Assembly: GCF_000015225.1 (NCBI RefSeq)
Contig: NC_008698.1
Span: 1,170,001-1,202,000 of the forward strand
Direction of reading: 5' to 3'
DNA: 32,000 bases
Source of the DNA: Thermofilum pendens Hrk 5
Lineage (GTDB): Archaea > Thermoproteota > Thermoprotei > Thermofilales > Thermofilaceae
Positions 1,893 to 30,750 of the stretch are shown here, one piece after another. Position numbers and translations under genes: made by a program. The stretch's first letter is position 1, and each line of letters starts with the position of its first letter. The notes under the pieces are model-generated. The model did no database searches, was not told the origin of the DNA, and saw only the letters and a list, made by a program, of their open reading frames with translations.

Positions 1893-1902
1893 GCTTTAAA
1901 GC
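1893..1902. promoter_or_regulatory. Palindromic TATA element GCTTTAAAGC in a 58-bp divergent intergenic region
   Basis: This is the only AT-rich element between start 1865 (minus) and start 1924 (plus). Its centre lies about 32 nt and 27 nt from the two start codons, consistent with leaderless transcripts in both directions. Confidence 0.5.
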
Positions 1903-1923
1903 GTTTCGCATGAGAAGGCTTAA

Positions 1924-3609: not shown

Positions 3610-3759
3610 AGGTATTCTGGTGCGACGAAGGTAAATAAAGGCAGTGCTCGGGGCGCGCGAAACCAGGAAAAAGGAAACAATGGAGATTTTACGCTAGCCC
3701 GAGCCCCTCAGCCCTCCGATATCCTCCTCCAGCTACCTCTCCAGCCCCCGTGCACGTCG

Positions 3760-4242: not shown

Positions 4243-4247
4243 CGCTG

Positions 4248-4988: not shown

Positions 4989-5029
4989 CAAGGTTGAAGA
5001 AAATTACTGGCTAAAACCTTTTCTATGAT

Positions 5030-5116
5030 GGCTTGAAGATGAACGTTTTGGAAAGCTCTAAGGCTTTTTCCTGGGGACCTCTATGGCACGCGATACTCGC
5101 GTGCATCTTCATTTTT
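5030..5116 (+). ncRNA. Candidate small structured RNA (nested stems followed by T5)
   Basis: Three pairings are visible: TGAAGAT (5034-5040) with ATCTTCA (5105-5111); a perfect hairpin GCACGCGA-TAC-TCGCGTGC (5086-5104); and GGAAAGC (5050-5056) with GCTTTTTCC (5063-5071). TTTTT follows at 5112-5116, and AT-rich AAAATTAC lies about 25-30 nt upstream. No homology support. Confidence 0.25.
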
Positions 5117-5320
5117 ACCTCTTGCCAGGGTTCTCCGGCGGGAAACGCGGAAAACTTTGAGAAAGGTTAGAGGTCTCGGTTTTTAGGCTAGCCGGTAAGC
5201 CGAGCGTTCTCTGAAAGCCCGGTATAAATTCGAGCAAAGAAGTCTATCGCTTTCTGCTCGTGAAAAGATATTTAACTGCCCTCGTGTAGCTATACACGCT
5301 GTAGGTGGAGTACTTAGAGT

Positions 5321-6160: not shown

Positions 6161-7029
6161 GCGCGGAACAGGCCCGGGGTAGCATAACGCCTGCCCTTCG
6201 CCTTCTTCGCCTCGTCCCACTCGTGGAGTATCTTCACAGCCTCGTTCGCGGTACGCACAGCAGCCTCCACGCCAGCGTTCTCTACGAGTTCGTCCTTAAC
6301 CCTGTTTGCCACGACGGCCAGCACGGCGCCGCCGCGCGCCCCGTAGATCGAGGACAGCGTTAGGATGGTTGAAGCCTCCATCTCGAAGCTCAGCACCCCG
6401 GCCCTCTGGAGGTCCGGTATGAGGTCCTTCATCCAGCTCTGCTCGTAGCCCTTGAAGCCCGGCCTCGCCTGGCCCGTGTAGAAGGAGTCCGTTGAAGCCA
6501 CTACCCCCACGTGGTACCTGGCGCCTACGCTCTCGGCCGCCTCTATCAGCGCCTCCACGACCTCGAAGTGCGCGATAGCCGGGTACTCCGCCCTCACGTA
6601 CTGCTTCGTCGTCCCGTCGAGCCTAACGGCGCCCGCGACTATTATCACGTCGCCCACGTCGATGAAGGGCTGTATAGCCCCCGTCGTTCCTACGCGTATA
6701 AACGTCGACGCGCCCACCCTCAGCAACTCCTCCACTGCTATCGCCGCCGCGGGGCCGCCTATACCCGTGGAGGTAGCCGAGACCTCGACGCCCTTATACC
6801 TACCCGTGTGCGTCACGTACTCCCTGTGCCTCGCGACCTCCCTGTACTCGTCCCAGAAGCTGGAGATGTAGGGCACTCTCTCCGGGTCGCCCGGAAGGAG
6901 CACGGTCGGGGCGACGTCCCCCGGCCTGCACTTTATGTGGTACTGGAGCCCCCCGCTACCCGAAGGCTCCCGGGCGCGCACCTTCTCCCCAGTCACCGCC
7001 AACCCTCCGGTCCGGCGCGGGCCAGGCAT
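6157..7029 (-). CDS. udp: Uridine phosphorylase (PNP/UDP-1 family)
   Basis: There is extended collinear similarity to E. coli Udp: LLPGDPERV, SATSTGIGGPAAAIAVEELLRVGASTFIRVGTTGAIQPFIDVGDVIIVAGAVRLDGTT, FEMEASTILT. The N-terminal ~25 aa extension may reflect a downstream true start. Confidence 0.9.
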   Translation of the reverse strand: MPGPRRTGGLAVTGEKVRAREPSGSGGLQYHIKCRPGDVAPTVLLPGDPERVPYISSFWDEYREVARHREYVTHTGRYKGVEVSATSTGIGGPAAAIAVEELLRVGASTFIRVGTTGAIQPFIDVGDVIIVAGAVRLDGTTKQYVRAEYPAIAHFEVVEALIEAAESVGARYHVGVVASTDSFYTGQARPGFKGYEQSWMKDLIPDLQRAGVLSFEMEASTILTLSSIYGARGGAVLAVVANRVKDELVENAGVEAAVRTANEAVKILHEWDEAKKAKGRRYATPGLFRA

Positions 7030-7046
7030 ATAAGCGTAGCGTCACG

Positions 7047-7056
7047 GATTTAACCC
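7047..7056. promoter_or_regulatory. Single TATA-like element GGATTTAACC in the 48-bp udp/rpiB divergent spacer
   Basis: This is the only TTTAA element between start 7029 (minus) and ATG 7078 (plus). It lies about 22 and 26 nt from the two starts. Confidence 0.45.
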
Positions 7057-7077
7057 CCCGCGGCTAGGCTGTACGCG

Positions 7078-7521
7078 ATGAAGGTAGCTTTCGGGGCGGA
7101 CGATAACTACTCGATAGCGAGGTTCGTAGTAGAGGAGCTTAAGCGCAGGGGCCACGAGGTCGTGCTGGTAGGCTCCCCGCTGACGGGGAAGCCCTACCCC
7201 TGGCCAAAAGTGGCTGTGGAGGTTGCGGAGCTCGTTGCGAGCGGCAAGGTGGATACGGGGATAGTCATGTGCTACACCGGGACGGGGGTGAGCATAGCCG
7301 CGAACAAGGTCAAGGGAGTCAGGGCTGCTCTCTGCACCGACGCGAAGAACGCCAGGGGCGCGCGCCTGTGGAACGACGCCAACGTGCTCGCGCTAAGCGC
7401 GAGGCTCCTCTCGGAGGAGGTCGCGAAGGAGATACTCGACGAGTGGTTCTCGGTCGAGAAGCCGGACCCCAGCGAGCTGGAGAACATAGAGTTCGTGAAG
7501 AAGCTGGACCTCTCAAGGTGA
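7078..7521 (+). CDS. rpiB: Ribose-5-phosphate isomerase B (RpiB/LacA/LacB family)
   Basis: MKVAFGADDNY, GIVMCYTGTGVSIAANKVKGVRAAL (catalytic Cys plus the SIAANK motif) and NDANVLALSARL match the family, and the 147-aa length is typical. Confidence 0.9.
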   Translation: MKVAFGADDNYSIARFVVEELKRRGHEVVLVGSPLTGKPYPWPKVAVEVAELVASGKVDTGIVMCYTGTGVSIAANKVKGVRAALCTDAKNARGARLWNDANVLALSARLLSEEVAKEILDEWFSVEKPDPSELENIEFVKKLDLSR

Positions 7522-8121
7522 GCCCAGGACCCTCCACAGCTCCTCCGCGGCTTCCCGGTCGACCTCCAGGAACCTCTCGAGCACGCGTAGCCTCTCGACC
7601 TTGCCCCCCGCCGCGAGGTAGACCCTGCCGCCCTCCACGGCTACTAGCTGGTAGACGACTCCGCGGAACTCGAGCTCGCCTACCCTCAGCTCCTCCGCGA
7701 TCGCGTCGAGCAAGCCCCCCGTGTCTACGAAGCCCTTGAAGAACTCCTCGACCCTGCGCATAGCCCCCCTGACGCCGAGCATCCTCACCGCGAAGTAGTC
7801 GACAGCCTCGAAGGACGCGCCTAAAGGCCTCTCGCGCGGCTGCGGGGGCGGCGGGATCCCCCTAACTATACCTTCGTTGCAGTCCCGCGAGGGGACCAGG
7901 GGCGCCGCCACGGGCGGGTCACCCTCCTTGACTGCACCCTCCGGGATCCTCCGGGCCAGGAGTATCAGGGCCCGCCGCCCGCCCCGCGCCCCCGCGAAGC
8001 AGTCGAAGAGGTAGAGGTAGCCGGGCTCCCCGGCCCGGCGGAAAGCGGCGTAGGGGTACCAGGCCTTCCTGAGCCGCTCGACTCTCCTCAGAGCCTTGGC
8101 GGAGACGTCCACGTAGTACAC
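7513..8121 (-). CDS. Hypothetical protein (third gene of a three-gene unknown operon)
   Basis: A 202-aa ORF with ordinary, non-low-complexity composition. It starts 13 nt after the stop of 8135..8632. No motif recognised. Its 3' end overlaps rpiB by 9 nt (convergent). Confidence 0.6.
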   Translation of the reverse strand: MYYVDVSAKALRRVERLRKAWYPYAAFRRAGEPGYLYLFDCFAGARGGRRALILLARRIPEGAVKEGDPPVAAPLVPSRDCNEGIVRGIPPPPQPRERPLGASFEAVDYFAVRMLGVRGAMRRVEEFFKGFVDTGGLLDAIAEELRVGELEFRGVVYQLVAVEGGRVYLAAGGKVERLRVLERFLEVDREAAEELWRVLGSP

Positions 8122-8134
8122 TGGGACGGCACCT

Positions 8135-8632
8135 CTACGTGTCCACCCGCGAGACGAGCCCCGCGTACCCCGTGTGGAGCCTCGGGTGGTTCTCCTCGAA
8201 GGAGAAGCCCTCGGCGTTCAGCAGGAAGAGCTCGTCGGCGCGTACCCGTAGCCCCCTGCGCCCGGCCATAGCGAGGAAGTCCCCGGACGCCAGCGACGTG
8301 TAGCCGCTCCACGACTCCACGGGGAACTGGTCGTAGTGCGTCGTGCCGACAGCGGTGATCTCGCCGGCGCGGACCTCGTAGACGCGCATGTGGAGGTAGA
8401 GGTAGGCGTTGAACGTCGGGGAGTAGACCACGCCCTTTGTGCCCCTGTCGCCGAGCCAGGTGCCCGCCGGCCAGACCTGCATCTTCATCTCGTTGCCGTA
8501 CGGTGTTCCACCGAAGAACAAGCCCCTAACCTCTCCGGCGCCCCCGAAGCCCGCGAAAACCAGGGAGACGGGCCAGTCGACGTTGTCCAGGCCTACCCTC
8601 TCGGACTGGAAGTCGTAGTTGTAGAATGACAC
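8135..8632 (-). CDS. Hypothetical protein (middle gene; may be the C-terminal part of a frameshifted fusion)
   Basis: A 165-aa ORF from GTG 8632 (SFYNYDFQSERVGLDNVDWPVSLVF...YLHMRVYE...GTTHYD). Its frame stays open upstream to 8749 with protein-like text but no ATG, GTG or TTG. No family recognised. Confidence 0.6.
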   Translation of the reverse strand: MSFYNYDFQSERVGLDNVDWPVSLVFAGFGGAGEVRGLFFGGTPYGNEMKMQVWPAGTWLGDRGTKGVVYSPTFNAYLYLHMRVYEVRAGEITAVGTTHYDQFPVESWSGYTSLASGDFLAMAGRRGLRVRADELFLLNAEGFSFEENHPRLHTGYAGLVSRVDT

Positions 8633-9291
8633 GCCCCCGGCGGACAGCTTTGCAAGCCCGCACTTAGCCCTCGACCTGGCCTCCCGCGCCCTCTCGACGT
8701 GGGAGGAAACGTCGCGCGCCTCCCCGGGACGGCTAGCCCCGTGAAGCGCTCAACGATCCGCCCGCCCGGCTCAACCCCCACGAGCGCAGCGCCGCCAGCC
8801 GTTAGCACCTCGTATACCCTCAGGCTCCCCAGCTGGCCGTAGGAGTACTCGCCTACCAGGCGCGCCTCCCCAGCCTCCCCCCACAGCCTACCGGCAAACT
8901 CGAGCACCCTCGCGAGCTCCCCCGAGTCCGCCCGCAACCCCTCCCCACCTCCCAGGAGGGGGTCCAGCAGAACCACCCTCCCGCGCCCCCTGTCGTAGAA
9001 GACGTGGAGCCCGCCCGCCACTACGCGCGCGGAGTAGCTCGCCCCCCTCAGGAAGTCCGCGAACACTCCTTCGACCTCGACGCGGCCGGCTAGGCGGAGA
9101 AGCGCTACGCAGCCGGTGAAGCCCATCGAGCGCCAGGAGCCCGAGACCAGTAGCTCCCACTCGGCGTGCCCAATCACTCTTCCAAGCAGTGGGTCAGACC
9201 TCAGCGCCTCCTCCAGCCTCCCCGCCTCCCACCCGCAGTAGTCTACCTCGCTTCTCTCCTCGACGAGACTTGCATCCAACCCTACCGGCAT
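8593..9291 (-). CDS. Hypothetical protein (first gene of the unknown operon); the last ~45 aa look out-of-frame
   Basis: A 232-aa ORF with a TATA-like element (revcomp of 9319-9331) about 30 nt upstream. The C-terminal tail PGRRATFPPTSRGRGRPGRGLSAGLQSCPPGACHSTTTTSSPRG is P/G/R/S-rich and overlaps the next ORF by 40 nt. Confidence 0.6.
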   Translation of the reverse strand: MPVGLDASLVEERSEVDYCGWEAGRLEEALRSDPLLGRVIGHAEWELLVSGSWRSMGFTGCVALLRLAGRVEVEGVFADFLRGASYSARVVAGGLHVFYDRGRGRVVLLDPLLGGGEGLRADSGELARVLEFAGRLWGEAGEARLVGEYSYGQLGSLRVYEVLTAGGAALVGVEPGGRIVERFTGLAVPGRRATFPPTSRGRGRPGRGLSAGLQSCPPGACHSTTTTSSPRG

Positions 9292-9620
9292 AGCCTACTC
9301 CTCACGCTACGGGCAGCCATAAAGCTTTAACGTAGCATGCGTAGCCGTTCCCGGTAGAAGCTTCTCCGCGCGTTAGCTTTAACTGAAGCTTTTCGGATGC
9401 CGCGTGATAGCTTCATTAATAAATATAACGCGGAGTCTTTTTAGTTTATCCCTCCCGAAGCGAGCTCCACGTTTTCACGATAAACTAATATTCTTCGAGG
9501 CCCTCCCATTACTGTTGATTATTATTCAAAGCTTTAACTCCTGCTTTGACGGAATTCTTCATGTATTTCTTTCTCAATGTAAAGTAAAATGTTTATTAAT
9601 GCTTAAAGACAGTTTAGGTT

Positions 9621-11771
9621 GTGCAACAGGCGCAGAAAAAGGGCTTGAGTAAGAGCGCGTTGTACGCCATTATAGCCGTTGCGTTGATTCTCGTAGTTGT
9701 AGCCGTCTACCTCTTGGCCCCGAAGGGTGCGGGACCAGCTGGCCCCGCCGCCGTGGCTAAGCCGTTCCACAAGCAGATTCTCTACGTGATCGTCAACGAC
9801 GAGGGGACTAGGATAAACATGTACAAGACCGGTGTCTTCGACATCGCTGCCGTAACGCCGGCTAGGTGGCCCGACGTTAACAATACTCGTGTCGGGAACT
9901 TCACGCTCCACCTCGTGAGGAGGCCCGACAAGCCGCAGCTAACGATACAGTACATAGGGTTGAACCCGATGAAGGAGCCGCTGAACATACCGGAGGTCAG
10001 GCAGGCGCTGGCCTACGCGACGCCCTACGACGTGATACTGAAGCAGGTTTTCGGCGGGCTCTACGTTAGGCTCTACACGATCATCCCCAAGGGGATGTCC
10101 GGCTACACGGAGTTCGGTATAAACAAGTACGAGTACGACATGGCGAAGGCCCAGCAGATAATCAGCCAGCTGAAGGCTAAGGGCTTCGACCCGGGCAAGT
10201 ACGTGATCACTATAATATACAACGAGGGCAACACGGCGCGCCAGCAGATAGCCACGCTCCTCCAGCAGTCGTGGAGCCAGCTCGGCTTCAAGGTTACCGT
10301 GGAGTCGTACTCCTGGCCCAAGTACCTCGACCTCGTCGACCACTTCCAGTACCAGGTGATGTTGCTCGGGTGGATACCCGACTACTTCGACCCCGACGAC
10401 TACCTCATGCCGTTCGTCTGGGGAGGCGCCGAGTTCAAGGACATAGAGGTACACTCGAACGTCGCGCCGGGAGACGTCGGTAAGTACCTCGCGAACGTCA
10501 ACATGACCGTCGAGACAGAGAAGTTCATCGTAGTAGCGGGAGAGAAGGGCACAGGCGCCACCTACAAGGGACCGACGAACAAGCCGATAATAACAGTCGG
10601 CTACGTCGTAGACTGGGACACGACGAAGTCTAACTGGGCGGAGCCCGTGAACATGGTTACCCTCGGCACCGGGGGGTTGAAGGACGTTGCTCTCAGCGCG
10701 CTGTGCAAGGCGGCCCAGAGGATAATCGACCCGACGGTTAGAGAGGCCGTCATGCAGGCCGCCGTCATCTACTTCAACAAGCAGGCAACCATGCTGATAC
10801 TCGGGCAACAGATAACGGGCGAGAACTACGGATCGTGGGTTCACGGCATGTACTACCCGCTCGCAACTTTCGCGAGGTACGACCTCGTCTGGGAGGACCC
10901 CAACGCCCCGGTTGTCGACACGGGCGTTCTCAACATTAAGAACAGCCCCGAGACGATGGTTATCGGCGATATAGGCTGGCCGGACACCTTCGACCCCGCC
11001 AAGTCCTACGAGAGCTTCGGCTGGGAGATCTTCTGGCACATATACGGAAAGCTTGTCACGATGTGGAAGGAGGACACGGAGCCCATACCGGAGCTCTCCG
11101 TGGCCTGGGCGTTCAGCAAGGACATGACGGACCTCTACTTCGTGATGAGGGGCAACGTGAAGGCCTACGATCCGTGGAACAACAAGACGTACCCCATAAC
11201 CGCCGTGGACGCCTTGTTCAGCATCTGGCGCGCCGTTAGGCTGAACCTGCCCGGAGGACCCCAGTGGATGATCGATAGCTACATAGACGTCAACGCCTCG
11301 AGCGTGCTCACGGAGAGCGAGCTAGACAGCATCGCCAAGTCCCAGGGCCTCGTAACAGTGTACAAGGGCAAGTCGGCGGAAGTCCACAGCCTCAAGGAGC
11401 TACTCGACTTCTTCGGCTACTCGGGCCCCACAGCCGGGGTCGTGAAGTTCAAGCTACGCTTCCCGTACGTGCCGATACTGCAGATATTCGTGACGGGCGT
11501 AGGCTCGATAATACCGATGCAGTACGCGCTCGGAGACAAGTACCAGGCCGCCCTCGCCGACTCCAATAACGGCAGGAACCCCGCGGCGTGGGCTAAGTAC
11601 GTCGGTGTCGGCGATACCGACGCGACGTTCAAGCTACTGTCGACGAAGCCTGTATCCACGGGGCCGTACTACGTTGCGGACTACAAGGAGGACAGCTACA
11701 TACTCCTCAAGTACAACCCCTACTACTGGAACGCCACGCTCTGGCAGGAGCTGTATGGCTTCAAACCATAA
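9621..11771 (+). CDS. ABC transporter substrate-binding protein, family 5 (Dpp/Opp/Nik type), membrane-anchored, apparently circularly permuted
   Basis: N-terminal anchor ALYAIIAVALILVVVAVYLLAP. Family-5 motifs include IQYIGLNPMKEPLNIPEVRQALAYA, YEYDMAKAQQII, LLGWIPDYFDPDDYL, TMVIGDIGWPDTFDPAKSY, IPELSVAWAFSKD and PVSTGPYYVADYKEDSYILLKYNPYYW. GTG start; a downstream TTG (9645) is possible. Confidence 0.9.
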   Translation: MQQAQKKGLSKSALYAIIAVALILVVVAVYLLAPKGAGPAGPAAVAKPFHKQILYVIVNDEGTRINMYKTGVFDIAAVTPARWPDVNNTRVGNFTLHLVRRPDKPQLTIQYIGLNPMKEPLNIPEVRQALAYATPYDVILKQVFGGLYVRLYTIIPKGMSGYTEFGINKYEYDMAKAQQIISQLKAKGFDPGKYVITIIYNEGNTARQQIATLLQQSWSQLGFKVTVESYSWPKYLDLVDHFQYQVMLLGWIPDYFDPDDYLMPFVWGGAEFKDIEVHSNVAPGDVGKYLANVNMTVETEKFIVVAGEKGTGATYKGPTNKPIITVGYVVDWDTTKSNWAEPVNMVTLGTGGLKDVALSALCKAAQRIIDPTVREAVMQAAVIYFNKQATMLILGQQITGENYGSWVHGMYYPLATFARYDLVWEDPNAPVVDTGVLNIKNSPETMVIGDIGWPDTFDPAKSYESFGWEIFWHIYGKLVTMWKEDTEPIPELSVAWAFSKDMTDLYFVMRGNVKAYDPWNNKTYPITAVDALFSIWRAVRLNLPGGPQWMIDSYIDVNASSVLTESELDSIAKSQGLVTVYKGKSAEVHSLKELLDFFGYSGPTAGVVKFKLRFPYVPILQIFVTGVGSIIPMQYALGDKYQAALADSNNGRNPAAWAKYVGVGDTDATFKLLSTKPVSTGPYYVADYKEDSYILLKYNPYYWNATLWQELYGFKP

Positions 11772-11772
11772 G

Positions 11773-11790
11773 TTTTTTTTTTTAAATTTC
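11773..11790 (+). terminator. T11 tract followed by AAATTT between the SBP gene and the permease genes (attenuator and/or internal TATA)
   Basis: TTTTTTTTTTTAAATTTC starts 2 nt after the SBP stop. GGTGAAGGTGG (SD-like) lies just before ATG 11816. Confidence 0.45.
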
Positions 11791-11815
11791 CCGTTTTTCT
11801 CTCGGGTGAAGGTGG

Positions 11816-12874
11816 ATGGGTCTAGCTAGCTATCTGGTGAGGAGGCTTGCAACGTTTCTCCCGAGCGTCCTCGGGGCGCTCCTCATAACCTACCTCATAG
11901 CCTACGTTATCCCCACGGACCCCGTGAGGGCGTGGGTAGGGGAGAAGCTCATGGACCCCTCGACCCTAGAGAGGCTGAGGAAGGAGTACAAGTTCGACGC
12001 GCCGTGGTACGAGCAGTTCGCCTTCCTGGTCGAGAAGCTCCTAACGGGCACGCTCGTAGACCCCACCAGGGGTATCCCCGTCGTCCAGCAGGTGGCGCAG
12101 AGGTTCCCGATAACCGTCGAGCTGGCTATATTCGGCATGCTGTTCACAGTGGCTATAGGCATACCGCTGGGGATACTGGCAGCGGCGAAGAAGGACAGCT
12201 TCGTGGACTTCTTCGTAAGGGTATTCGCGCTCTTCGGGAGCTCCATGCCGGCCTTCGTGCTCTACTACTTCCTGATACTGGCGTTCTACGTCTACGTGAG
12301 AGCCTCGCTACTAGCCGGGGTTCCCTCCCTGTCTCCAGCGTGCGCCGCCAGCCTGGACTCCGTCAGGAACGCGGTTCCCCTCCTGGGCTACGTCGTGTGG
12401 GCGGTAGGCCAGGTCCCGATGTTCGGCGGTCTCATGTGCGGGGATCTGGGGGTTGTCTCTGCGACGTTCGTTAGGATGTGGCTTCCGGGGTTGGCGCTGG
12501 GGCTCCTCTCCGGCGGCTTCATAGCGAGGATAGTTAGGAACAGCTTGCTCGACGCGCTGAGTTCGGACGCGATCCTCTTTGCAAGGGCAAGGGGCCTTAC
12601 GAGCGGCAGGATATGGCGGCACGCCTTGAAGAACGCGTTCGCGCCTATAGTCACGATTCTCGGCCTCAACTTCGCCGGCCTGCTCACGGGCGCCGTGATA
12701 GCGGAGACTGTCTTCAATATCCCCGGCATGGGGCTCTACATGTACCAGGGGATCACGAGGCTGAACTTCCCGATAATAATCGCCGGGACGTTCATATTCT
12801 CGGTGATATACATCGTGATGAACCTCCTGGTAGACCTCGTCTACGCGCTGATAGACCCGCGCGTCAGGTACTAG
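11816..12874 (+). CDS. ABC transporter permease (DppB/OppB-like)
   Basis: Typical N-terminus MGLASYLVRRLATFLPSVLGALLITYLIAYVIPTDP, multiple TM segments, and the EAA-loop region ARARGLTSGRIWRHALKNAFAPIV. Confidence 0.9.
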   Translation: MGLASYLVRRLATFLPSVLGALLITYLIAYVIPTDPVRAWVGEKLMDPSTLERLRKEYKFDAPWYEQFAFLVEKLLTGTLVDPTRGIPVVQQVAQRFPITVELAIFGMLFTVAIGIPLGILAAAKKDSFVDFFVRVFALFGSSMPAFVLYYFLILAFYVYVRASLLAGVPSLSPACAASLDSVRNAVPLLGYVVWAVGQVPMFGGLMCGDLGVVSATFVRMWLPGLALGLLSGGFIARIVRNSLLDALSSDAILFARARGLTSGRIWRHALKNAFAPIVTILGLNFAGLLTGAVIAETVFNIPGMGLYMYQGITRLNFPIIIAGTFIFSVIYIVMNLLVDLVYALIDPRVRY

Positions 12875-16232: not shown

Positions 16233-18059
16233 ATGGACGTAGTTATTGTAGCGGCAGGCGAGGCTTCGAGGCTTAGGCCTTACTCCGAGGAAATGCCGAA
16301 AACACTCATGGAACTGAGGCCCGGCCTTCCTATAATCGACTTCATACTGAAAAGGGTTATGGCTCTCTCTCCTAGGAAGGTGGTGGTTGTTACGAGAAGG
16401 ACGTGGAAGGATATTCTCGCCTCGCATCTCGCCGGCTTAGCCGAAGTCGTTACAGTAGACCTCGAGGGCGGGTTTGGGAACCTCTACAGCGTGTACACGG
16501 CGCTCACAAGAGTCGGGGACGAGTTCCTGATATTGATGTCTGACCACATATTCGAGGAGGAAGTACTGATGAGGCTTGCAGAACACGCGAGCAAAGCGTC
16601 GTTTACCGTTTGTCTCGACAGGAATCCCTCCCGCTCCGAGGCTGTGGAAGGTTTGAAAGTTATAATCGAAGGAGGACTGGTTAGGGACGCTGGCAAAGAT
16701 GCGGCGCCCCGGTACGGGATCGATACAGGGGCGATAATGGCGCGCGGGAGAGCCAAAGAGTTTATCGAGGAAGTGATCAGACAGAAAGGTCCAGGGGCAT
16801 CTATTGCCGACGTGCTGAGATTCGCCGCCTCTAAGGGAGAGGAGGTCGACTACGTAGACGTTACGGGGCTTTTATGGAAAGATATCGACACCCCCGAGGA
16901 CCTCGTTAAGGCTAGGAAACTCGTCGAGAAGGTGGAGCTCAGGGAGCTAGCGAAGAGGACTGGGGATCCCCTCTCGCGAGCTCTTTTGAAACCCCTAACG
17001 ACGAGGCTTTCGATGCTCGCCTTAAAGAACTCTCTGCTGAAACCCGCCATGCTTACTAGCTGGGCTTCGGCGTTTTTAGCATCGTGGGCTCTGCTTCTCC
17101 CACAGGTGGAGAGCAACGCGCTTCTAATGTTTCCCCTATTAGCCGTGCACGTAGTAGCGAGCGAACTTCTACGCGAGCTAGCAGTGCTAGCATCGTGGGA
17201 CGTCACGGCGATATCGCAGGTAGATTTCCTCGCTACACTACCCTTAGCGGCTTTTGTCTCAAGGCTTGCCGATACATGGCCTTTGTCTGTGCTTGCGGGG
17301 GCTGGGATACTTTTCACTTCGCTTGCCGGGCTCCCCAGAATGGCAAGCGCGGAGGGTTACTCAGGGTTACTGGTCTCCAAGCTTCTCGCTACTATCGTGC
17401 TTTCGCTCTCTCTTTTCGTGGGTGGGGCGATCTACGGGGTAGCCTTTTGCGCACTAATGCCCTGGTTGCACATAGCTTTAAGGCTTAAGCCGCGTAGATC
17501 TGGGCTTGCCAGAGGGAAAGAGCCTTCCCATGTACCCATCCCCGCGGTTCGTGTTGACGAGATCGCCGAGAAAATCGAGTCCCTTGTAACGAATGTGGTG
17601 AAGCTAGCGGTGGTTCTAGCTGTGCTTACGATGCTCTCCCCCCTCTCATCGGACGTCCTCTTCCAAGTCGATGAATATTCGCTACGCGTGGGGACTCTTC
17701 TAACGGTCGCGCAGTTAACCGCCGTTGTGTACTATGGCTATAAGATCCTGGAACCTCTCTTTAGCCTGCTAGACGCCCTGGCGACAAGACTCGTCGAGAA
17801 ACTCGGGGTAACAAGGTACACTGCTAGGCGTATACTGGTAGAGTCCGTGTACTTGGTGCTAATAGTGCTTACATGGTTCCTCCTCCCCAGCCTCAAGAAC
17901 ATACCCGGTATTGGCGGTGTGCTCTACAGGGTTCTAACGATAGTTATCGTCGCGCTTTTTGCCCTTATCTCCTACGACTTGGTGAGGCTTCTCTTCAGGG
18001 TATTCGAGGACACGCTTAAGCGCATAGTACACGCTATAGCCCGTTTTGTCTCCGGGTGA
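16233..18059 (+). CDS. IPCT-like cytidylyltransferase fused to a DIPPS-like membrane domain lacking the CDP-alcohol transferase motif, plus an extra C-terminal membrane region
   Basis: The N-terminal domain reads VVIVAAGEASRLRP...PKTLMEL, SDHIF, GIDTGAIMA, LWKDIDTPEDLVKARKLV, collinear with the IPCT domain of archaeal IPCT/DIPPS as I recall it. It is followed by the connector GDPLSRALLKPLTTRLS and TM helices. The expected DGxxDGxxAR position reads HVVASELLRELAV. About 170 further aa contain additional TM helices. Confidence 0.8.
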   Translation: MDVVIVAAGEASRLRPYSEEMPKTLMELRPGLPIIDFILKRVMALSPRKVVVVTRRTWKDILASHLAGLAEVVTVDLEGGFGNLYSVYTALTRVGDEFLILMSDHIFEEEVLMRLAEHASKASFTVCLDRNPSRSEAVEGLKVIIEGGLVRDAGKDAAPRYGIDTGAIMARGRAKEFIEEVIRQKGPGASIADVLRFAASKGEEVDYVDVTGLLWKDIDTPEDLVKARKLVEKVELRELAKRTGDPLSRALLKPLTTRLSMLALKNSLLKPAMLTSWASAFLASWALLLPQVESNALLMFPLLAVHVVASELLRELAVLASWDVTAISQVDFLATLPLAAFVSRLADTWPLSVLAGAGILFTSLAGLPRMASAEGYSGLLVSKLLATIVLSLSLFVGGAIYGVAFCALMPWLHIALRLKPRRSGLARGKEPSHVPIPAVRVDEIAEKIESLVTNVVKLAVVLAVLTMLSPLSSDVLFQVDEYSLRVGTLLTVAQLTAVVYYGYKILEPLFSLLDALATRLVEKLGVTRYTARRILVESVYLVLIVLTWFLLPSLKNIPGIGGVLYRVLTIVIVALFALISYDLVRLLFRVFEDTLKRIVHAIARFVSG

Positions 18060-19300
18060 GCATGTCAATGAAGGGCGTTGTAATGTTCACGGAGGAGGAT
18101 CGTTGTTGCTATGAGCTAAAGCTGTGCGGCGTACCGGTCTACCTCCGCGTAATAGCTGCGCTCATCCAGGGGGGCGTAAGGGAGATAGTCTGCGTGAATG
18201 CCCCGAGCCGCGTAAAATCGGCGTTAGGCGACGGGAGAGAGCTGAACGCCAGGGTAACGTACTTGGATTCAGCGGCGCGGGTCGAGGGTTTGGGAGACGC
18301 TGTCCTGCTAGAGGCATCGACTATTATCGACGTAGCACTGGTGCGGGCGGCTAGTACGTTTAAAGAGGACACGGTGGTGCTCGACGAGAAGAGTGGAGGA
18401 AAGGTGTGGGTACTGCGGAAAGCCAGCGCGAGGCTAGAGGGTAAAAGTGCTGGTGAACTACCGGTAATACTAGGCGAGCTCGAGAAGTCTTCGCTCAAAC
18501 GGGTAAGCGTCCGAGAAATAGCCTTTATGGATCCTGAGCTCAAGCGTGAAGTGGAGCCTCTTTGCGTTAAGATCCGTGACCCCCTGGACGCACGCGAAGT
18601 AAAAAAGTTGCTGGTCAAAAGGGCTGGTAAAAGGTTGCACATAACCTCGCGGGTGAACACCGTAATTGAGGACAGGGTAGTCGAAATGCTATGCGAGCAC
18701 AGCTGGGTAACGCCTAACAGGGTTACACTCCTCGTAGACTTACTAGCGTTTATGGTAGCATTCTTTATACTGCAGGCGAGCTTGCCCCTGGCGCTCGTAG
18801 CGGCGTACCTCGTAGGAGTTCTGGACGGGGTAGACGGGAAGCTGGCAAGGGTCAGGTTTCCCTCAAAGGTGGGTAGCCTCGAGCACTCGTTCGACGCGCT
18901 ATACGAGCAGACCTGGTATGCTTTCCTCGCCTGGAGGTTGTTCGTAGACACGGGATCTCACCTACCCCTTATGCTCGGCTTTGCCTTTCTCGTCGTGGAC
19001 ACCTTCGTCCGGCACGTGTACATGCAGTTTAAAATGACGATGGGTATACCCCTTACGGCTTACTCCAGATTCGACAGGGCTTTTGCCGCCATCGACGGTA
19101 GGCGGAACGTTTATCTCATTTACTTCCTCGTCTCCTCGCTTCTCGGACAACCGCTCTGCGGTCTGCTAGCGGCGCTTGCACACGCGCTTATAACGGCTAC
19201 GTTCTACTCGCTGAGAGCGTTAAAACATGCAAGGAACGTCGACAAAGCGTCAGGCCTCTCGCGCCTCTTAGAACTGAGTAAAAGCACTAGGAAAGACTAA
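18056..19300 (+). CDS. CDP-alcohol phosphatidyltransferase (DIPPS-like) with a degenerate N-terminal nucleotidyltransferase-like domain
   Basis: LDGVDGKLARVRFPSKVGSLEHSFD (nt 18824-18895) fits D-G-x2-D-G-x2-A-R...G...D with one Asp-to-Glu change. It is preceded by TPNRVTLL and TM helices. The N-terminal ~190 aa align to the upstream gene's transferase domain (LCGVPVYLRVIAALIQGGVREIVCV ... KIRDPLDAREVKKLL), but the G-rich loop reads FTEEDRCCYEL. GTG 18056 overlaps the upstream stop; ATG 18062 is an alternative start. Confidence 0.8.
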   Translation: MSMSMKGVVMFTEEDRCCYELKLCGVPVYLRVIAALIQGGVREIVCVNAPSRVKSALGDGRELNARVTYLDSAARVEGLGDAVLLEASTIIDVALVRAASTFKEDTVVLDEKSGGKVWVLRKASARLEGKSAGELPVILGELEKSSLKRVSVREIAFMDPELKREVEPLCVKIRDPLDAREVKKLLVKRAGKRLHITSRVNTVIEDRVVEMLCEHSWVTPNRVTLLVDLLAFMVAFFILQASLPLALVAAYLVGVLDGVDGKLARVRFPSKVGSLEHSFDALYEQTWYAFLAWRLFVDTGSHLPLMLGFAFLVVDTFVRHVYMQFKMTMGIPLTAYSRFDRAFAAIDGRRNVYLIYFLVSSLLGQPLCGLLAALAHALITATFYSLRALKHARNVDKASGLSRLLELSKSTRKD

Positions 19301-25664: not shown

Positions 25665-26675
25665 GTGTCTTCGATAAGGTTCGGCGAGGTAGTCTCGGGG
25701 AGGCTTTCGGACCACTTCTACTGCTGGGTTAGGAAGCCCCTCGACAAGGGCGAGGTCTTCGCCCCCGACGACCCCTCGAAGTACTGGGTCTACTCCCTCG
25801 AGGAAGAGGAGTACACGCGCTTCAAGAACAGCTTCATAAAGCGGCCGAAGGGCGTCTTGACGCTGTCCCTGAGGAGCAGGAAGACGTTCAGGTACGGCTT
25901 CTTCCAGCTCGCCGCGGCCCTACCCTCGTGGGGCAGGGGGTCCCCGATGCTGTGGTTTGGCTTCGAGAACGAGGACCTCTTCGGCGGCGGTGTCGCGCAC
26001 TTCCTCTTCTCGGAGGACGAGCTCTATGCCTTTGCCGGCGCATGGGGGTCTAGCGTGCTTCAGCTGAGGCTACCCGTCGACGTGGGGGAGCTGAAGAGGG
26101 GTAGCCACGTTTTCACGGTGAGGGTCTACGAGGGCCTAGCTGTGTGGAGCGTGGATTCCGAGGTGAAGGGGGTAGCGGTGCTCGCCGACACCGGCCAGCC
26201 CGTCGTCGCCTACGAGGGGGCGCCCTACTCGGCCGGGGTGACTGGGAGGAGCCCCCCGCCGAGCATGGGCGTGCTCATCGACATCGACGGGGGCCCCGGC
26301 GACGAGGACTGGGTGTGGTGGAACGTGAACCCCTGGCACTTGAGGGTCGCCGAGGGAGGGCCGAGGCCTTTCATGGCGCTCAGGCTCTACGAGTGGGGCA
26401 CCGGGAGGCAGTGGGAGGGCTTCAGGGCCTCCGGGAGGCTCGTGTCGCAACCGGTCCCCACGCTCGGGCGGAGCGTAACCCTGACCCTCGCCCCGGCGAA
26501 CGGGATGCTGAGAGTGGAGGCTCTCACGCTTTCGAACAGGTGGGTCACAGTCTACGAGCGGAGGGTGCAGGGGGTTGCCAGGGTGTACCTCGACGGGGGC
26601 GACTTGTTCTCGAGGTTTGTCTACGAGCCCGAAGGAGAGCAGGCGATAAGCGTCGCGGAAGTCACGGTAACGTAG
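25665..26675 (+). CDS. Hypothetical protein, possibly beta-jelly-roll (ConA-like)
   Basis: A 336-aa ORF from GTG, 24 nt after the fdhD-like stop. FRYGFFQLAAALPSWGRGSPMLWFGFENED and SHVFTVRVYEGLAVWSVDSEV loosely resemble the strands noted in ORF 4248..4988. No signal peptide. Confidence 0.55.
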   Translation: MSSIRFGEVVSGRLSDHFYCWVRKPLDKGEVFAPDDPSKYWVYSLEEEEYTRFKNSFIKRPKGVLTLSLRSRKTFRYGFFQLAAALPSWGRGSPMLWFGFENEDLFGGGVAHFLFSEDELYAFAGAWGSSVLQLRLPVDVGELKRGSHVFTVRVYEGLAVWSVDSEVKGVAVLADTGQPVVAYEGAPYSAGVTGRSPPPSMGVLIDIDGGPGDEDWVWWNVNPWHLRVAEGGPRPFMALRLYEWGTGRQWEGFRASGRLVSQPVPTLGRSVTLTLAPANGMLRVEALTLSNRWVTVYERRVQGVARVYLDGGDLFSRFVYEPEGEQAISVAEVTVT

Positions 26676-26723: not shown

Positions 26724-27548
26724 GTGAAGAGCGGTGTAACCGCGTTCGCGCTACTCGCCCTGCTCGCGGCGACCCAGCTCGCGCTCGCCCAGCCCCTGGA
26801 GGTTCTCTACGTACTGCCGGGCGGCCTGGTACAGGGCTACGTCGTCTTCACGGTTCCGGGGACGGGCTTCGCCGAGTTCAAGCTTCCCGGCTCGGTCGAA
26901 TCCCTCGGGGTCACGGGTACGGGCTCCTCGCCCCCCGTCTTCAACCTCAGCGGCGGCGTTCTCTCGGTGCTCGCAGACCCGGGCTCCACTGTCAACGCGT
27001 CCTTCGTGTCCAGGCTTCCGCGCGACTCCGTCACCACGCTGAGCGTGCCGGCCGAGAACCAGTCCCTCAAGGTCTACGTGAGTAGCGAGTACGTCGTGCT
27101 AGGCGTATCCCCCACGCCGACAACCATAGCCTACACGCAGGGCTACGTGCTCCTAGGCTTCGACGTGCTCGCGGAGGACCTCCAGGTTGTACTCGTCGAG
27201 ACGGGTTCCGCGCAGGCTGGGCAGGGAGCCCCCGCCGCGCAGCAAGGCGGTGCCCCTCAGTTGCAGCAGCTCCTGCCCTACGCCGTGCTCGTAGCGGTTG
27301 CCGTCGCCGCGGTGTTGCTGGCGCTGAGGCTGAAGAGGAGGGGGGAGGGGGGCGTGGTGCTAGAGGAGGACGAGGCGATACTGGACTTCCTGAGGCGTAG
27401 CGGGGGGAGGGCTTACCTCAAGGAGATCAGGGAAGCCCTGGGAATCCCCTCGACTACGCTCCTGAGGAGGGTTAGGAGGCTCGAGAAGGCAGGCTACCTC
27501 AGGCTCGAGAAGACCCCCGGAGGGCTCCTAGTGATACTCAAGAAATAA
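26724..27548 (+). CDS. Membrane-anchored winged-helix regulator with secreted N-terminal domain
   Basis: Signal peptide MKSGVTAFALLALLAATQLALA/QP, a ~150-aa beta-rich ectodomain, a Q/A/G linker, TM LLPYAVLVAVAVAAVLLAL followed by RLKRR, then the cytoplasmic wHTH ILDFLRRSGGRAYLKEIREALGIPSTTLLRRVRRLEKAGYLRLEK. Confidence 0.7.
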   Translation: MKSGVTAFALLALLAATQLALAQPLEVLYVLPGGLVQGYVVFTVPGTGFAEFKLPGSVESLGVTGTGSSPPVFNLSGGVLSVLADPGSTVNASFVSRLPRDSVTTLSVPAENQSLKVYVSSEYVVLGVSPTPTTIAYTQGYVLLGFDVLAEDLQVVLVETGSAQAGQGAPAAQQGGAPQLQQLLPYAVLVAVAVAAVLLALRLKRRGEGGVVLEEDEAILDFLRRSGGRAYLKEIREALGIPSTTLLRRVRRLEKAGYLRLEKTPGGLLVILKK

Positions 27549-27553
27549 ATACC

Positions 27554-27871
27554 TTGGCCGGCTATTCTATCTGGGTGACCGCGGTGGGGGAGGAGGTGCT
27601 CCTCGTAGGCGAGAAGCCGGAGAGCGCCTACACGCTTGAACTCATGACCATGCTGGGCAAGGGCGCGCCCCGCGTCGTAGTGAGGGCCGTCGGGAGGAAC
27701 ATCTCTAAGGCTGTCTACGTCACGGAGGGCGTCCGGCGCCTAACGGGGGACAAGATAGCCTACGGGAAGATCAGGATATACTCGACGGAGGTCGGCGAGG
27801 TAAAGGAGGAAAAGTCCGTCCCGGTGATAGAGATAGAGGTAGTAAACCTGGGGGTGGAGCGCCGGGCGTAG
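27554..27871 (+). CDS. albA: Alba-family DNA/RNA-binding protein (divergent, Alba2-like)
   Basis: VLLVGEKPESAYTLELMTML..GAPRVVVRAVGRNISKAVYVTEGVRR ... VPVIEIEV is collinear with Sso10b/Alba (IGKKPVMNYV ... KARGRAISKAVD ... STIEI). The tracked TTG start lies 5 nt after the upstream stop; internal GTG starts are possible. Confidence 0.8.
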   Translation: MAGYSIWVTAVGEEVLLVGEKPESAYTLELMTMLGKGAPRVVVRAVGRNISKAVYVTEGVRRLTGDKIAYGKIRIYSTEVGEVKEEKSVPVIEIEVVNLGVERRA

Positions 27872-27883: not shown

Positions 27884-27902
27884 TGCGGAATACAATTCCG
27901 CA
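27884..27902. promoter_or_regulatory. Perfect palindrome TGCGGAAT-ACA-ATTCCGCA abutting the TATA box of the AAA+ ATPase gene
   Basis: 8-bp arms with a 3-nt spacer. CTTTATAAG (27905-27913) follows immediately and lies about 27 nt upstream of ATG 27936. Confidence 0.4.
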
Positions 27903-27935
27903 TACTTTATAAGGGTGTGTGGAGCAGTAATCCAC

Positions 27936-29168
27936 ATGGGCTTCTTGAGGGAGCTCACAGAGGAGTACCTGGGGTCGCTCAAGTACGTTGCGCGCATCGT
28001 CCCCAGGGAGGTCGAGCTTCCGCGCGAGTCCCCGGACATAGTGGCCGTGGTGGGGCCGAGGAGGTCCGGGAAGACGTTCGTCATGCTGAGGAGCGTCGAG
28101 AGAGACCTGGCGGAGGGGCTCCAGGCTCTCTACGTGCCGCTGGACGAGCCGTCCCTGCGGAGGCTCGACGCGAGGAGGTTCGCCGAGATGGTGAGGGAGG
28201 AGTACAGGGAGGGCAGGGTCCGGCTCTACATGGACGAGGTCCAGGACTGGGAGGACTGGGACTCGAAGCTACGCTGGCTCCACGACGTGAAGGACTTCCA
28301 GCTGTACGTTACAGGGTCCTCCTCCGCCCTCCAGTCCTCGGAGATACCGAGCAGGCTCAGGGGGAGGTACGTCTCGAGGCTCGTCCTCCCCTTCTCGTTC
28401 AGGGAGGTCGCGCGGGCAGAGCTAGGCGCGGAGCCCTCGACCTTCAGGGAGAGGGGCGCCTTGAAGGGCTTGCTCAGGGAGTACCTGGCCTGGGGAGGCT
28501 TCCCGGAGGTGTGGCTGTACAGGTCGAGGGAGAAGGCCGTCGCGCTACTCGAGACGATGTTCTACAGGGACATCGTGGAGAGGCACAGGGTTAGGGAGCC
28601 GGAGGCGCTCCTGGAGCTCGCGTACGTGGTCCTCTCGAGTTACGCGAGCCCCGTCACGTGGCGCTCCCTGGCGAGGAGCCTGAAGGGGCTGGGGGTCGAG
28701 GTGGACGCTAAGACCGCGGCTAGCTACGTCGAGTACATGCGCCAAGCCTTCCTGGTCTTCGTCGTGAAGCGCTTCGCGTACTCGGAGAGGCTGAGGGCCA
28801 GGTCCCCGAGGAAGGTCTACGTCGTGGACCCGGCGGTGGCGAGCCTCTTCGAGAGGCCACTCGACCTCGGCAGGAGGGCCGAGAACGTCGTCCTCGTCGA
28901 GCTCGTGAGGAGGGGTTGCGAGCCGGGCTACTACGTCACGTCGAGGGGCAGAGAGGTGGACTTCGCTGCTAAGTGCGGGGGCTCGCTGAGGCTCGTCGAG
29001 GTGTGCCTAGAGGTCGAGGAGGGGCACGTGAGGAAAGTCGCCGAGGCCATGCGGGAGCTGAGGCTCAGGGAGGCAGAGCTCGTATCGTGGGACGACGAGG
29101 ACGAAAGGGAGGTTGAGGGCGGGAGGGTGAGGGTAGTGCCGCTCTGGAAGTGGCTACTCGGAGCGTAG
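27936..29168 (+). CDS. AAA+ ATPase of the COG1373 type (AAA_14 plus DUF4143-like C-terminal domain)
   Basis: Walker A GPRRSGKTF and Walker B VRLYMDEVQ, followed by LYVTGSSS. The C-terminal YYVTSRGREVDFAAK...LVEV resembles the E-x-D-F nuclease-fold motif of this family. ATG 27936 is preferred over tracked GTG 27915 because of TATA spacing. Confidence 0.85.
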   Translation: MGFLRELTEEYLGSLKYVARIVPREVELPRESPDIVAVVGPRRSGKTFVMLRSVERDLAEGLQALYVPLDEPSLRRLDARRFAEMVREEYREGRVRLYMDEVQDWEDWDSKLRWLHDVKDFQLYVTGSSSALQSSEIPSRLRGRYVSRLVLPFSFREVARAELGAEPSTFRERGALKGLLREYLAWGGFPEVWLYRSREKAVALLETMFYRDIVERHRVREPEALLELAYVVLSSYASPVTWRSLARSLKGLGVEVDAKTAASYVEYMRQAFLVFVVKRFAYSERLRARSPRKVYVVDPAVASLFERPLDLGRRAENVVLVELVRRGCEPGYYVTSRGREVDFAAKCGGSLRLVEVCLEVEEGHVRKVAEAMRELRLREAELVSWDDEDEREVEGGRVRVVPLWKWLLGA

Positions 29169-29222
29169 CCCTCCTGAAAAGCCTCGGTAAAGAATATAGG
29201 GCGCGTTGCGGCAAGAAGAGTC

Positions 29223-30020
29223 GTGCGCAACCCGTCAGGACACCGGGAAGCTCACGTAGTGACCGTTGGGACCAGCATCCTCAGGAACGCCGCCTCCAGG
29301 GCCTCCGGGGACCTCGCGGGGAGGCTTAGGTCCTGGGCTTCCGCGCGCGTAGGGTCGCGGGAGGACGCCGAGGCGGGCGAGAGGGCCGCGCCGGGGACTC
29401 CGGAGTTCAAGTTTCTCTACGACGTGCTCGCGCTCGACCCGCGCGGCGTGAGCGCAGAGCTGAACGCGATGTGGCCGTACCTGGAGGCTGGGCGCGTGGC
29501 CGCCGCGTACCTACTCGCGAGCGACTCCGGGGCGTCGACGCTGTGCGCCAGCGTCCTGAAGGAGTACCTGGGGGAGCACGGGGTGGAGGTGGAGGTCGAG
29601 CGCGTAGCAGACCTGGGGAGGGACTTCGACAAGGGTCTCTACAACCTGCTAGACGCGCTGTCTAGGGCTGTCGAGGGCTACAGGAGGAGGGGCTACGCCG
29701 TCTACGTCAACGCTACCGGGGGCTTCAAGCCCGAGACCGCGGTGGTCTACGCGGCGGCGTCGCTCTTCGGGGCTTCGAGGGTCTACTACATACACGAGAC
29801 GATGGGCGAGGTCGTAGAGCTCCCAACGCTACCCCTAGCGCTGAGCCCGGGCTACGAGGACTTCGCGAGGCTACTCGAGGAGCCCCTGGCGAGGAGGGAG
29901 CTGGAGGCGAAGGTGAGGCCCGAGGCTATCAAGGACGCCCTAGCCAGGGGCATACTGGTCGAGGAGGGGTCCCAGCTGAGGGTCAGGAGGTGGGTCAGGC
30001 TACTGCTGGGCGCGAGGTGA
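29223..30020 (+). CDS. CARF-domain protein (APE2256-like) with C-terminal helical/wHTH-like region
   Basis: Strand-1 motif VVTVGTSILRNA (nt 29259-29294). NATGGFK (nt 29709-29729) matches the CARF signature [DN]-x-[ST]-x3-[RK]. The C-terminus reads AIKDALARGILVEEGSQLRVRRWVRLL. TATA-like AAAGAATATA lies about 29 nt upstream of GTG 29223. Confidence 0.8.
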   Translation: MRNPSGHREAHVVTVGTSILRNAASRASGDLAGRLRSWASARVGSREDAEAGERAAPGTPEFKFLYDVLALDPRGVSAELNAMWPYLEAGRVAAAYLLASDSGASTLCASVLKEYLGEHGVEVEVERVADLGRDFDKGLYNLLDALSRAVEGYRRRGYAVYVNATGGFKPETAVVYAAASLFGASRVYYIHETMGEVVELPTLPLALSPGYEDFARLLEEPLARRELEAKVRPEAIKDALARGILVEEGSQLRVRRWVRLLLGAR

Positions 30021-30024
30021 GCGC

Positions 30025-30732
30025 GTGTTCTCCAGGTACGCCGCCCTCGTGAAGAACCTCAGGGGAGTCGTGCTCCTCGACCCCTCGGAGGAGGGCGCGA
30101 AGGAGTCGCTACGCTGGCTCGCGGAGAGGTTCAGGTACAGGAACCTCGGGTTAACGCCGGCGGCGGCCGCAAGCCTTGGGTCTCCTCAGAAGCCTTTCAG
30201 GGTCCTCGCGTACCCCCTGGAGGAGTACGAGCGCTTCGCGGGGGAGCTCGCTGGGTGCGCGGGGCTCGAGAAGGGGCTCACCGAGCTACTGGTTCTCTCC
30301 TCCCTTTACGTGTCGCCGGCTATCCTCGTGGGGTACAGGTACAGGGAGGCTCTTGGCGCGGTCGCGGTCGACGAGGTGAGGGTTCGGGGGGCTATGGGCG
30401 TCCAGCAGTGGAAGCTCCACCTGAGGATAGCCGACTACACCGTCCTGGACATGTACGAGTACTCCGTGGAGACGGCCGAGGAAGCCGTGCGGTCGTGCGG
30501 GGACGAGGCTAAGGTAGCTAGTTTGCTCGAGGAGAGGGCGAGGCGCGTGGCGGCGGACAAGAAGAGGTACTGGAGGGTGTCGAGCGGGGAGGGAGACGTC
30601 TTCATGTACTACGTGGACAACCTACGCGTGTACTGCTCGAGGTGCGGCTCCTCGGGGCTCTGCGGCAGGGACTGGCTGGCCGCGGCGCTAGCGGTGGTCC
30701 CCGTAGTGGTGGTGCCTCCAGGCATGAAGTAG
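30025..30732 (+). CDS. Hypothetical protein translationally coupled to the CARF gene
   Basis: GTG 30025 lies 4 nt after the CARF stop, and AGGTGA (30015-30020) provides an SD-like site. The 235-aa product has no motif I recognise. Its C-terminus is CSRCGSSGLCGRDWLAAALAVVPVVVVPPGMK (Cys cluster plus hydrophobic tail). Confidence 0.6.
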   Translation: MFSRYAALVKNLRGVVLLDPSEEGAKESLRWLAERFRYRNLGLTPAAAASLGSPQKPFRVLAYPLEEYERFAGELAGCAGLEKGLTELLVLSSLYVSPAILVGYRYREALGAVAVDEVRVRGAMGVQQWKLHLRIADYTVLDMYEYSVETAEEAVRSCGDEAKVASLLEERARRVAADKKRYWRVSSGEGDVFMYYVDNLRVYCSRCGSSGLCGRDWLAAALAVVPVVVVPPGMK

Positions 30733-30738: not shown

Positions 30739-30750
30739 TTTTTTCTTTTT
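30739..30750 (+). terminator. Oligo-T terminator TTTTTTCTTTTT
   Basis: It starts 7 nt after stop TAG 30730-30732 and is the same 12-mer as at 21658-21669. Confidence 0.5.

Follow-up and report, generated by a model that had tools for sequence, protein, structure and literature searches.

The stretch of DNA analysed here, called the window, comprises 32,000 nt of the Thermofilum pendens Hrk 5 genome (NC_008698.1, positions 1,170,001 to 1,202,000), and all coordinates given below are positions within it. It carries two adjacent genes on the + strand. The product of the first one (29223-30020) is a true CARF protein carrying a winged helix-turn-helix (wHTH) domain at its C-terminus, and the second one (from GTG 30025) encodes a 235-aa member of an uncharacterised archaeal family. 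A first-pass annotation of this region had described an orphan CARF sensor translationally coupled to a protein that could be a new CARF-linked effector, an accessory factor or the regulated target. However, these two genes do not make up a new module of defence. By analogy with its characterised relatives, the CARF gene most likely encodes a ring nuclease or sensor of cyclic tetra-adenylate (cA4) acting in trans. It is, in our opinion, quite probable that such a trans-acting CARF-wHTH ring nuclease is followed here by an unrelated protein whose gene is co-transcribed with it by accident.

Membership of the first gene in the Cas_APE2256 family, which had been guessed at beforehand, was confirmed by profile as well as by structure comparison. 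Its 265-aa product matches Pfam PF09651 with an E-value of 7.4e-44 (149.4 bits against a cut-off of 24.8) and TIGR02619 with 99.8 bits (cut-off 37.45), and the PADLOC model CARF7--CARF covers it over its full length (residues 9-264, 272.7 bits). The CARF domain spans approximately residues 9-203 and the wHTH domain approximately residues 209-264. In a phmmer search of the PDB the structures of two long Crn1 ring nucleases were found, those of Sis0811 from S. islandicus (7PQ2, E 3.5e-21) and Sso1393 (3QYF, E 2e-19), residues 9-263 of the T. pendens protein aligning with residues 3-265 of 7PQ2. The alignment with both nucleases is full-length and includes the wHTH domain, in agreement with the wHTH-like tail noticed from the sequence. 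In the CARF part, 58 of the 192 positions aligned with the long Crn1 form are identical (about 30%). The AlphaFold2 (AF2) model of the protein has a predicted local distance difference test score (pLDDT) of 91.1. When this model was compared with the PDB by Foldseek, Sis0811 and Sso1393 ranked first (E 4e-17 to 1e-14, about 270 columns, TM-score 0.65; 7PQ3 and 3QYF at E 4e-17 to 2e-16), and every significant match was a CARF protein, in keeping with the Rossmann-like fold of this superfamily.

Both CARF hallmarks that had been read from the sequence, a first strand ending in GTS and the segment N-A-T-G-G-F-K, are present where they had been placed (Table 1) and are invariant in the orthologues. 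In an alignment of 16 orthologues S18, N22, K169 and Y189 do not vary, and the same is true for N163, T165 and G167 of motif II. In Sis0811, S12 and K169 are the catalytic residues, and roles in ligand contact have likewise been described (PMC8643638). On the T. pendens protein S12 maps to S18 and K169 to K169, and of the Sis0811 residues in contact with cA4, N16 maps to N22, Y189 to Y189 and S103 to S105, all of them being kept. With the family, the architecture and the catalytic residues of a long Crn1 protein in place, ring-nuclease activity may be expected by analogy. One of the possibilities offered beforehand, that of a stand-alone ring nuclease or a regulator, is thus the best reading in the light of the Crn1 profile, fold and catalytic-residue matches.

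The open reading frame (ORF) of the CARF protein starts with GTG 29223. Except for the position at which it begins, it is identical to the protein of T. pendens Hrk 5 named "CRISPR-associated protein, APE2256 family". The GenBank model is 12 codons shorter (253 aa, starting at 29259), and this start would remove the beta-1 segment EAH[IV]VTVGTS, which is kept in 15 of 15 orthologues. Therefore, GTG 29223 is the better start of the two.

The term orphan, which had been applied to this gene, is right as far as its position within the window is concerned. As had been stated, there is neither a repeat array nor a cas gene in these 32 kb, the latter being judged from the 26 largest ORFs of the window, none of which belongs to a cas family when scanned; Rfam matches are also absent from the window. 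The term does not suit the clade, however. In other Thermofilaceae, an orthologue (53% identity) in a metagenome-assembled genome (MAG) of Infirmifilum sits between csx1 and cmr3-cas10, and the closest orthologue (67% identity) adjoins cas1/cas2. Another orthologue is located near cas6 fragments, and three further ones stand alone among metabolic genes. The CARF gene is a mobile accessory that is often found away from cas loci. As for the Infirmifilum contig, positions 843-12632 hold cas6, csx1 (555 aa), the Crn1 orthologue, cmr3, cas10/cmr2 (1120 aa) and RAMP genes. Together they form a compact locus of type III-B, which represents the canonical setting of the clade to which the T. pendens CARF protein belongs.

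With respect to T. pendens itself, a csm (type III) locus is drawn for this species according to the legend of Fig. 1A in PMC3807668, and a paper on its type I-D Csc2 protein points to a type I-D system (PMC4615900). It has been proposed that ring nucleases may serve another locus in trans (PMC12409355). Since the orthologues are found either in cas loci or alone, a csm locus has been reported in the legend mentioned above and trans-acting ring nucleases have been proposed, an action in trans of the CARF protein on type III signalling is plausible. Several Thermofilaceae likewise have the gene away from any cas locus, which fits the published proposals on ring nucleases of this kind.

The linkage between both genes was studied in 80 loci of the partner family from other species (765 kb), in which a CARF gene was sought within 6 kb. 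None of the 80 loci carries one when searched by tblastn with the T. pendens CARF protein (E 1e-3), and a profile hidden Markov model (HMM) of 16 CARF orthologues gave nothing at E 1 against the six-frame translation of the same loci. In the opposite direction, the partner family is absent from all six CARF-orthologue contexts outside T. pendens; among 13 CARF-orthologue loci, the two T. pendens contigs are the only ones matched by the partner HMM. Thus, it is only in T. pendens that both genes are juxtaposed. The first-pass annotation had itself made conservation of the pair in related genomes a point on which its proposal should be judged, and the pairing is absent outside T. pendens; the roles of effector, accessory factor and regulated target that it had considered for the partner are not supported. 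Three genes near CARF orthologues were considered as possible partners and discarded: the unannotated genes of 233 and 234 aa in two of the contexts (L083 and L086) and a 241-aa gene directly 3' of the CARF gene in a third one (L093) do not belong to the partner family.

The surroundings of the partner family, which occurs elsewhere as a single gene, are those of a housekeeping gene. No neighbour cluster is common to more than six of 66 loci, and the immediate neighbours (one gene on each side, 70 genomes, assigned by Pfam) belong to mixed housekeeping families, such as radical SAM proteins, Trm5/TYW2, THUMP methyltransferases, HhH-GPD glycosylases, metallophosphoesterases, B3/4 proteins, Lhr-type helicases and transporters. 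HhH-GPD glycosylases (six loci) and metallophosphoesterases (five) are among those that recur. In 15 of the 66 loci, no more than 17 nt separate the partner gene from a co-directional gene ahead of it, the close upstream gene varying by lineage (endonuclease III-like, GH5-like, B3/4, CobA, Lhr, Lrp, DUF1284 or phosphoesterase). The family thus behaves like a small housekeeping gene outside defence islands that easily comes to follow whichever gene happens to be upstream, in T. pendens the Crn1 homologue.

PADLOC matches on neighbours of the partner family are cross-matches to generic methyltransferase, helicase, radical SAM and transmembrane regions. Among them, the CARF3--CARF_TM match seen on three neighbours concerns the transmembrane end of the profile in a 605-aa protein and not a CARF domain. 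Proteins that cluster by BLAST adjoin the 235-aa family in two Thermofilaceae (L005 6596-9865 and L009 6639-9881) and one Hadesarchaeon (L074 3329-5986); the one scanned, that of L074, is an Lhr-type helicase. Taken together, these neighbours give a weak hint of a context of nucleic-acid or tRNA maintenance for the 235-aa family.

The 235-aa protein shows 100% identity with a T. pendens protein annotated as hypothetical. It has 244 homologues, all of them unnamed. Homologues begin at the same MF(S/A)RYAA motif, which supports the GTG 30025 start. An exhaustive profile search through 1.84 billion representatives yielded 229 members, almost all of them single-domain proteins of 230-270 aa. They amount to about 229 clusters at 50% identity and are found in thermophilic archaea: Desulfurococcales, Thermofilaceae, Ignisphaera, Nezhaarchaeales, Methanomethylicia, Culexarchaeia, Bathyarchaeia and Hadarchaeales. 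The eight clusters looked up are all named only "hypothetical protein". The statement that the ORF could be assigned to no family has been upheld. Pfam, NCBIfam, PADLOC and PHROGs gave no usable match, either with the single sequence or with all 49 aligned members; scattered library matches to one or two of the 49 were treated as noise. Ten distant members of the family contain no Pfam domain, and sequence and profile searches of the PDB gave no match to the T. pendens protein. One Desulfurococcaceae MAG (JAWAHD01) has two copies of the family on separate scaffolds (L031 385-1095 and L033 1600-2310), and they are either paralogues or the product of a mixed bin.

The AF2 model of the 235-aa protein is of high confidence (pLDDT 95.8, predicted TM-score 0.92). 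It shows an N-terminal domain of alternating beta strands and alpha helices, two long helices and two further strands, the last of which comprises residues 224-230. A Foldseek search of this model against the PDB and BFVD gave nothing at E < 0.01, with TM-scores of 0.3 or less; weak matches to phosphotransacetylase, PIN and glycosyltransferase structures reflect a generic alpha/beta layer only and were rejected. The invariant residues of the family are K10, N11, R13, G14, W31, E87, S93, Y95, S97, P98, W129, H132, R134, D142, D178, R181, R184, Y196 and D198. As judged from the sequence alignment, those among them that are K, N, R, E, S, Y, H or D would be in keeping with an enzyme or with a pocket in which a ligand bearing phosphate is bound.

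The architecture of the gene junction corresponds to the one described before: the CARF stop codon lies within a Shine-Dalgarno (SD)-like site and GTG 30025 opens the 235-aa ORF 4 nt later. The same GAGGTGA, at the same 4-nt spacing, also precedes an internal operon start in the window, ATG 13989. The TATA-like box (previously placed at about 29189-29198) and the oligo-T tract that had been proposed as promoter and terminator of the pair are both present and rare in the window, whose G+C content is 61%. AT-rich spots like TAAAGAATATA number 29 in the whole window, and similar boxes precede other first genes. Runs of T6 occur five times on the + strand, and three of them, including the one at 30739-30750, are directly 3' of the end of a + strand ORF. 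It is unlikely, on sequence grounds, that the box, the T tract and GAGGTGA arose by chance. The spacing between box and start codon implies that the CARF transcript would be leaderless. No AT-rich box is present in the 40 nt ahead of GTG 30025, so the second gene probably relies on the promoter of the CARF gene, and both genes would be co-transcribed and translationally coupled. A bacterial promoter/terminator scan was set aside, as it is inapplicable to an archaeon.

Table 1. Features of the CARF gene, the downstream gene and their putative expression signals (window coordinates).
Feature	Position	Strand	Evidence or remark
TATA-like AT-rich box TAAAGAATATA	29188..29198	+	25-35 nt before GTG 29223; putative promoter
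CARF7/Cas_APE2256 protein, 265 aa, long-form Crn1 homologue	29223..30020	+	Pfam, PADLOC, phmmer, AF2 and Foldseek
CARF motif I, G16-T17-S18	29268..29276	+	S18 aligns with catalytic S12 of Sis0811; invariant in 16 orthologues
CARF motif II, N163-A-T-G-G-F-K169	29709..29729	+	K169 aligns with catalytic K169 of Sis0811; fits [DN]x[ST]xxx[RK]
GAGGTGA SD-like site holding the CARF stop TGA (30018-30020)	30014..30020	+	4 nt before GTG 30025
Soluble alpha/beta protein of 235 aa from an uncharacterised archaeal family	30025..30732	+	Homologue searches, AF2 model
Cys triplet C204-x2-C207-x5-C213	30634..30663	+	Variable helical region; T. pendens-specific
Hydrophobic C-terminal stretch LAAALAVVPVVVV, residues 218-230	30676..30714	+	Short helix and last beta strand of the model
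Oligo-T tract TTTTTTCTTTTT	30739..30750	+	7 nt past the stop codon; probable archaeal terminator

According to the explanation that we favour, a CARF-wHTH dimer would bind cA4 made by the Cas10 protein of a type III system encoded elsewhere in the genome. By analogy with Sis0811, the dimer would cleave cA4 slowly and in a metal-independent manner to linear A2>P, Ser18 positioning the 2'-OH and Lys169 stabilising the transition state. The CARF protein would be an off-switch acting in trans that resets cyclic oligoadenylate (cOA) levels and type III signalling. The 235-aa gene, devoid of a promoter of its own, would probably be read from the leaderless CARF transcript through GAGGTGA. Its product would be an unrelated soluble enzyme or ligand-binding protein, the adjacency of both genes being a lineage-specific accident of genome rearrangement.

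The closeness of both genes could also reflect a signalling module specific to T. pendens, in which the CARF protein, on sensing cA4, would control the 235-aa protein through autoregulation by its wHTH domain or through direct binding, the 235-aa protein having been recruited recently as an effector or target. The 4-nt gap with GAGGTGA, the partner gene without a promoter box and the single TATA-like box and single oligo-T tract that bracket the pair are what such a module would look like, and in Sis0811 the wHTH domains rotate on cA4 binding and cleavage, a DNA-binding role having been speculated for them (PMC8643638). However, the linkage is unconserved in the 80 partner loci and the six CARF-orthologue contexts, the partner family is found among housekeeping genes and not in defence islands, and elsewhere the partner is equally tight to unrelated upstream genes (glycosylase, B3/4, CobA, Lhr, Lrp regulator, glycoside hydrolase), which makes this module quite unlikely. 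The probability that the partner was functionally recruited very recently, and in T. pendens alone, is similarly small. Very unlikely, too, is a functional operon fusion in which the CARF-wHTH protein regulates its own operon and ties a conserved archaeal housekeeping protein to type III signalling; if the pocket formed by the invariant K, R, H, D and Y residues of the 235-aa protein binds a nucleotide, this protein might act on cOA or its products.

The other two alternatives concern the nature of each protein. Rather than being a ring nuclease, the CARF-wHTH protein could mainly serve as a transcription factor that responds to cA4, like Csa3, as the combination of CARF and wHTH domains and a significant fold match to Csa3 (2WTE, E 1.4e-5) would suggest. 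This is unlikely: the ring nucleases Sis0811 and Sso1393 give full-length matches that are better by about ten orders of magnitude, neither the catalytic Ser nor the catalytic Lys varies, and the PADLOC clade of the protein is CARF7, not Csa3. As for the 235-aa protein, the CxxCx5C motif and the hydrophobic tail that the first-pass annotation had pointed out do exist in the sequence, and the Kyte-Doolittle 19-residue mean of the tail (1.86) exceeds the usual 1.6, as would be expected of a tail-anchored, metal-binding membrane effector. However, the columns of C204, C207 and C213 are unconserved in the 49 homologues, and the hydrophobic run has 13 residues, includes a Pro and is modelled in part as the strand 224-230, in a block with pLDDT of at least 96. 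According to the model, the tail would be a buried beta strand of the globular domain rather than a membrane anchor, and an effector of this type is hardly credible.

Several points weigh against the reading of an accidental neighbour to a trans-acting ring nuclease, and they concern both of its halves. In the mapping from Sis0811 three adenine contacts are replaced conservatively (D75 by N81, both T98 and T100 by Ser and Y191 by H191), which may or may not alter binding. The NCBIfam ring-nuclease equivalog NF040951 gave 72.8 bits and did not reach its cut-off of 600; this shortfall is a consequence of divergence from the seed sequences and not evidence against homology, as such a cut-off is reachable only by near relatives of the seeds. 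Binding and cleavage of cA4 by the T. pendens protein are predictions by analogy. The statement that this species has a cOA-making Cas10 comes from the figure legend of one paper (PMC3807668), and no T. pendens protein is present among 96 matches to the Infirmifilum Cmr2 seed, so that a Cmr system of that clade is not confirmed there. With regard to the pairing, the closest CARF orthologue (67% identity) lies at a contig edge with its downstream gene beyond it, and the nearest partner homologue in the comparison is 55% identical. Finally, the 4-nt SD-like junction means that the genes are probably co-expressed, and a species-specific link is conceivable.

The gene upstream of the CARF gene (27915-29168), previously reported as a COG1373 AAA+ ATPase, encodes an AAA_14 protein with a DUF4143 domain. 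This ATPase (+ strand) shows a full-length match to the PADLOC candidate defence family PDC-S01 (E 2.7e-79), and the two genes, its own and that of the Crn1 homologue, may constitute a small islet related to defence. A TATA-like box at 27902-27912 suggests that its gene starts at ATG 27936 rather than at GTG 27915. Further upstream, the gene at 26724-27548 (+ strand) encodes a 274-aa protein that has a signal-like segment at its N-terminus, a hydrophobic one around residue 200 and a wHTH domain of the MarR type at its C-terminus; it looks like a membrane-anchored wHTH protein. The Alba gene (27554-27871, + strand) starts 5 nt after it. The larger ORFs of the window correspond to ABC transporters, radical SAM enzymes, FdhD, a phosphorylase, Alba and similar proteins. 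Two ORFs on the + strand, 25665-26675 (336 aa) and 18056-19300 (414 aa), could be assigned to no Pfam family with the thresholds applied. A T11 run (11773-11783) is located directly 3' of the gene for a 716-aa solute-binding protein and ahead of the permease genes of an oligopeptide ABC operon, where it may serve for attenuation as an internal terminator.

The pair adds little to CRISPR biology, as the CARF gene was already annotated as APE2256 family and fits the characterised long Crn1 proteins. The pair is rather a cautionary case: a tight, SD-coupled pair of genes in a compact archaeal genome is not necessarily a functional module, and a Cys triplet or a hydrophobic tail noticed in a single sequence can vanish when homologues and a structural model are considered. 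The 235-aa family, which combines a confident model with the absence of any matching known family or solved fold, is a target for structural and functional genomics independent of CRISPR.

Among the known systems, Csa3 resembles the T. pendens CARF protein in its architecture, being a CARF-wHTH transcription regulator. However, its fold match is much weaker than that of Crn1 and it belongs to another CARF clade; no Csa3 model is among the 25 PADLOC matches listed for the CARF protein, whereas PADLOC Csa3 models do match the other wHTH protein of the window, that of 26724-27548. Cami1 (PDB 8PHB), a cA4-activated, ribosome-dependent mRNA interferase composed of CARF7 and RelE domains, forms the second-best structural group (E about 4e-11), and PADLOC CARF_RelE models also match the CARF part of the T. 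pendens protein. Unlike Cami1, the latter has no RelE domain, its C-terminus being a wHTH.

The short form of Crn1 (Sso2081 and Sis0455) shares with the T. pendens protein the CARF7/Crn1 family and the G-T-S of motif I but lacks the wHTH domain. In short Crn1, positions 104-106 (G-R-K) form motif II, and the site is closed by a lid consisting of a helical insert (PMC10018336); neither of these features is seen in the T. pendens CARF protein. No short-form structure is among the sequence and fold matches listed for it, and the short form is not its closest relative. The best counterparts are the long Crn1 ring nucleases Sis0811 (PDB 7PQ2 and 7PQ3) and Sso1393, which show the same order of CARF and wHTH domains and about the same length. 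With respect to them, the T. pendens protein has diverged to about 26-30% identity, and its gene, which in these 32 kb belongs to no cas locus, shares a probable operon with an unrelated one.

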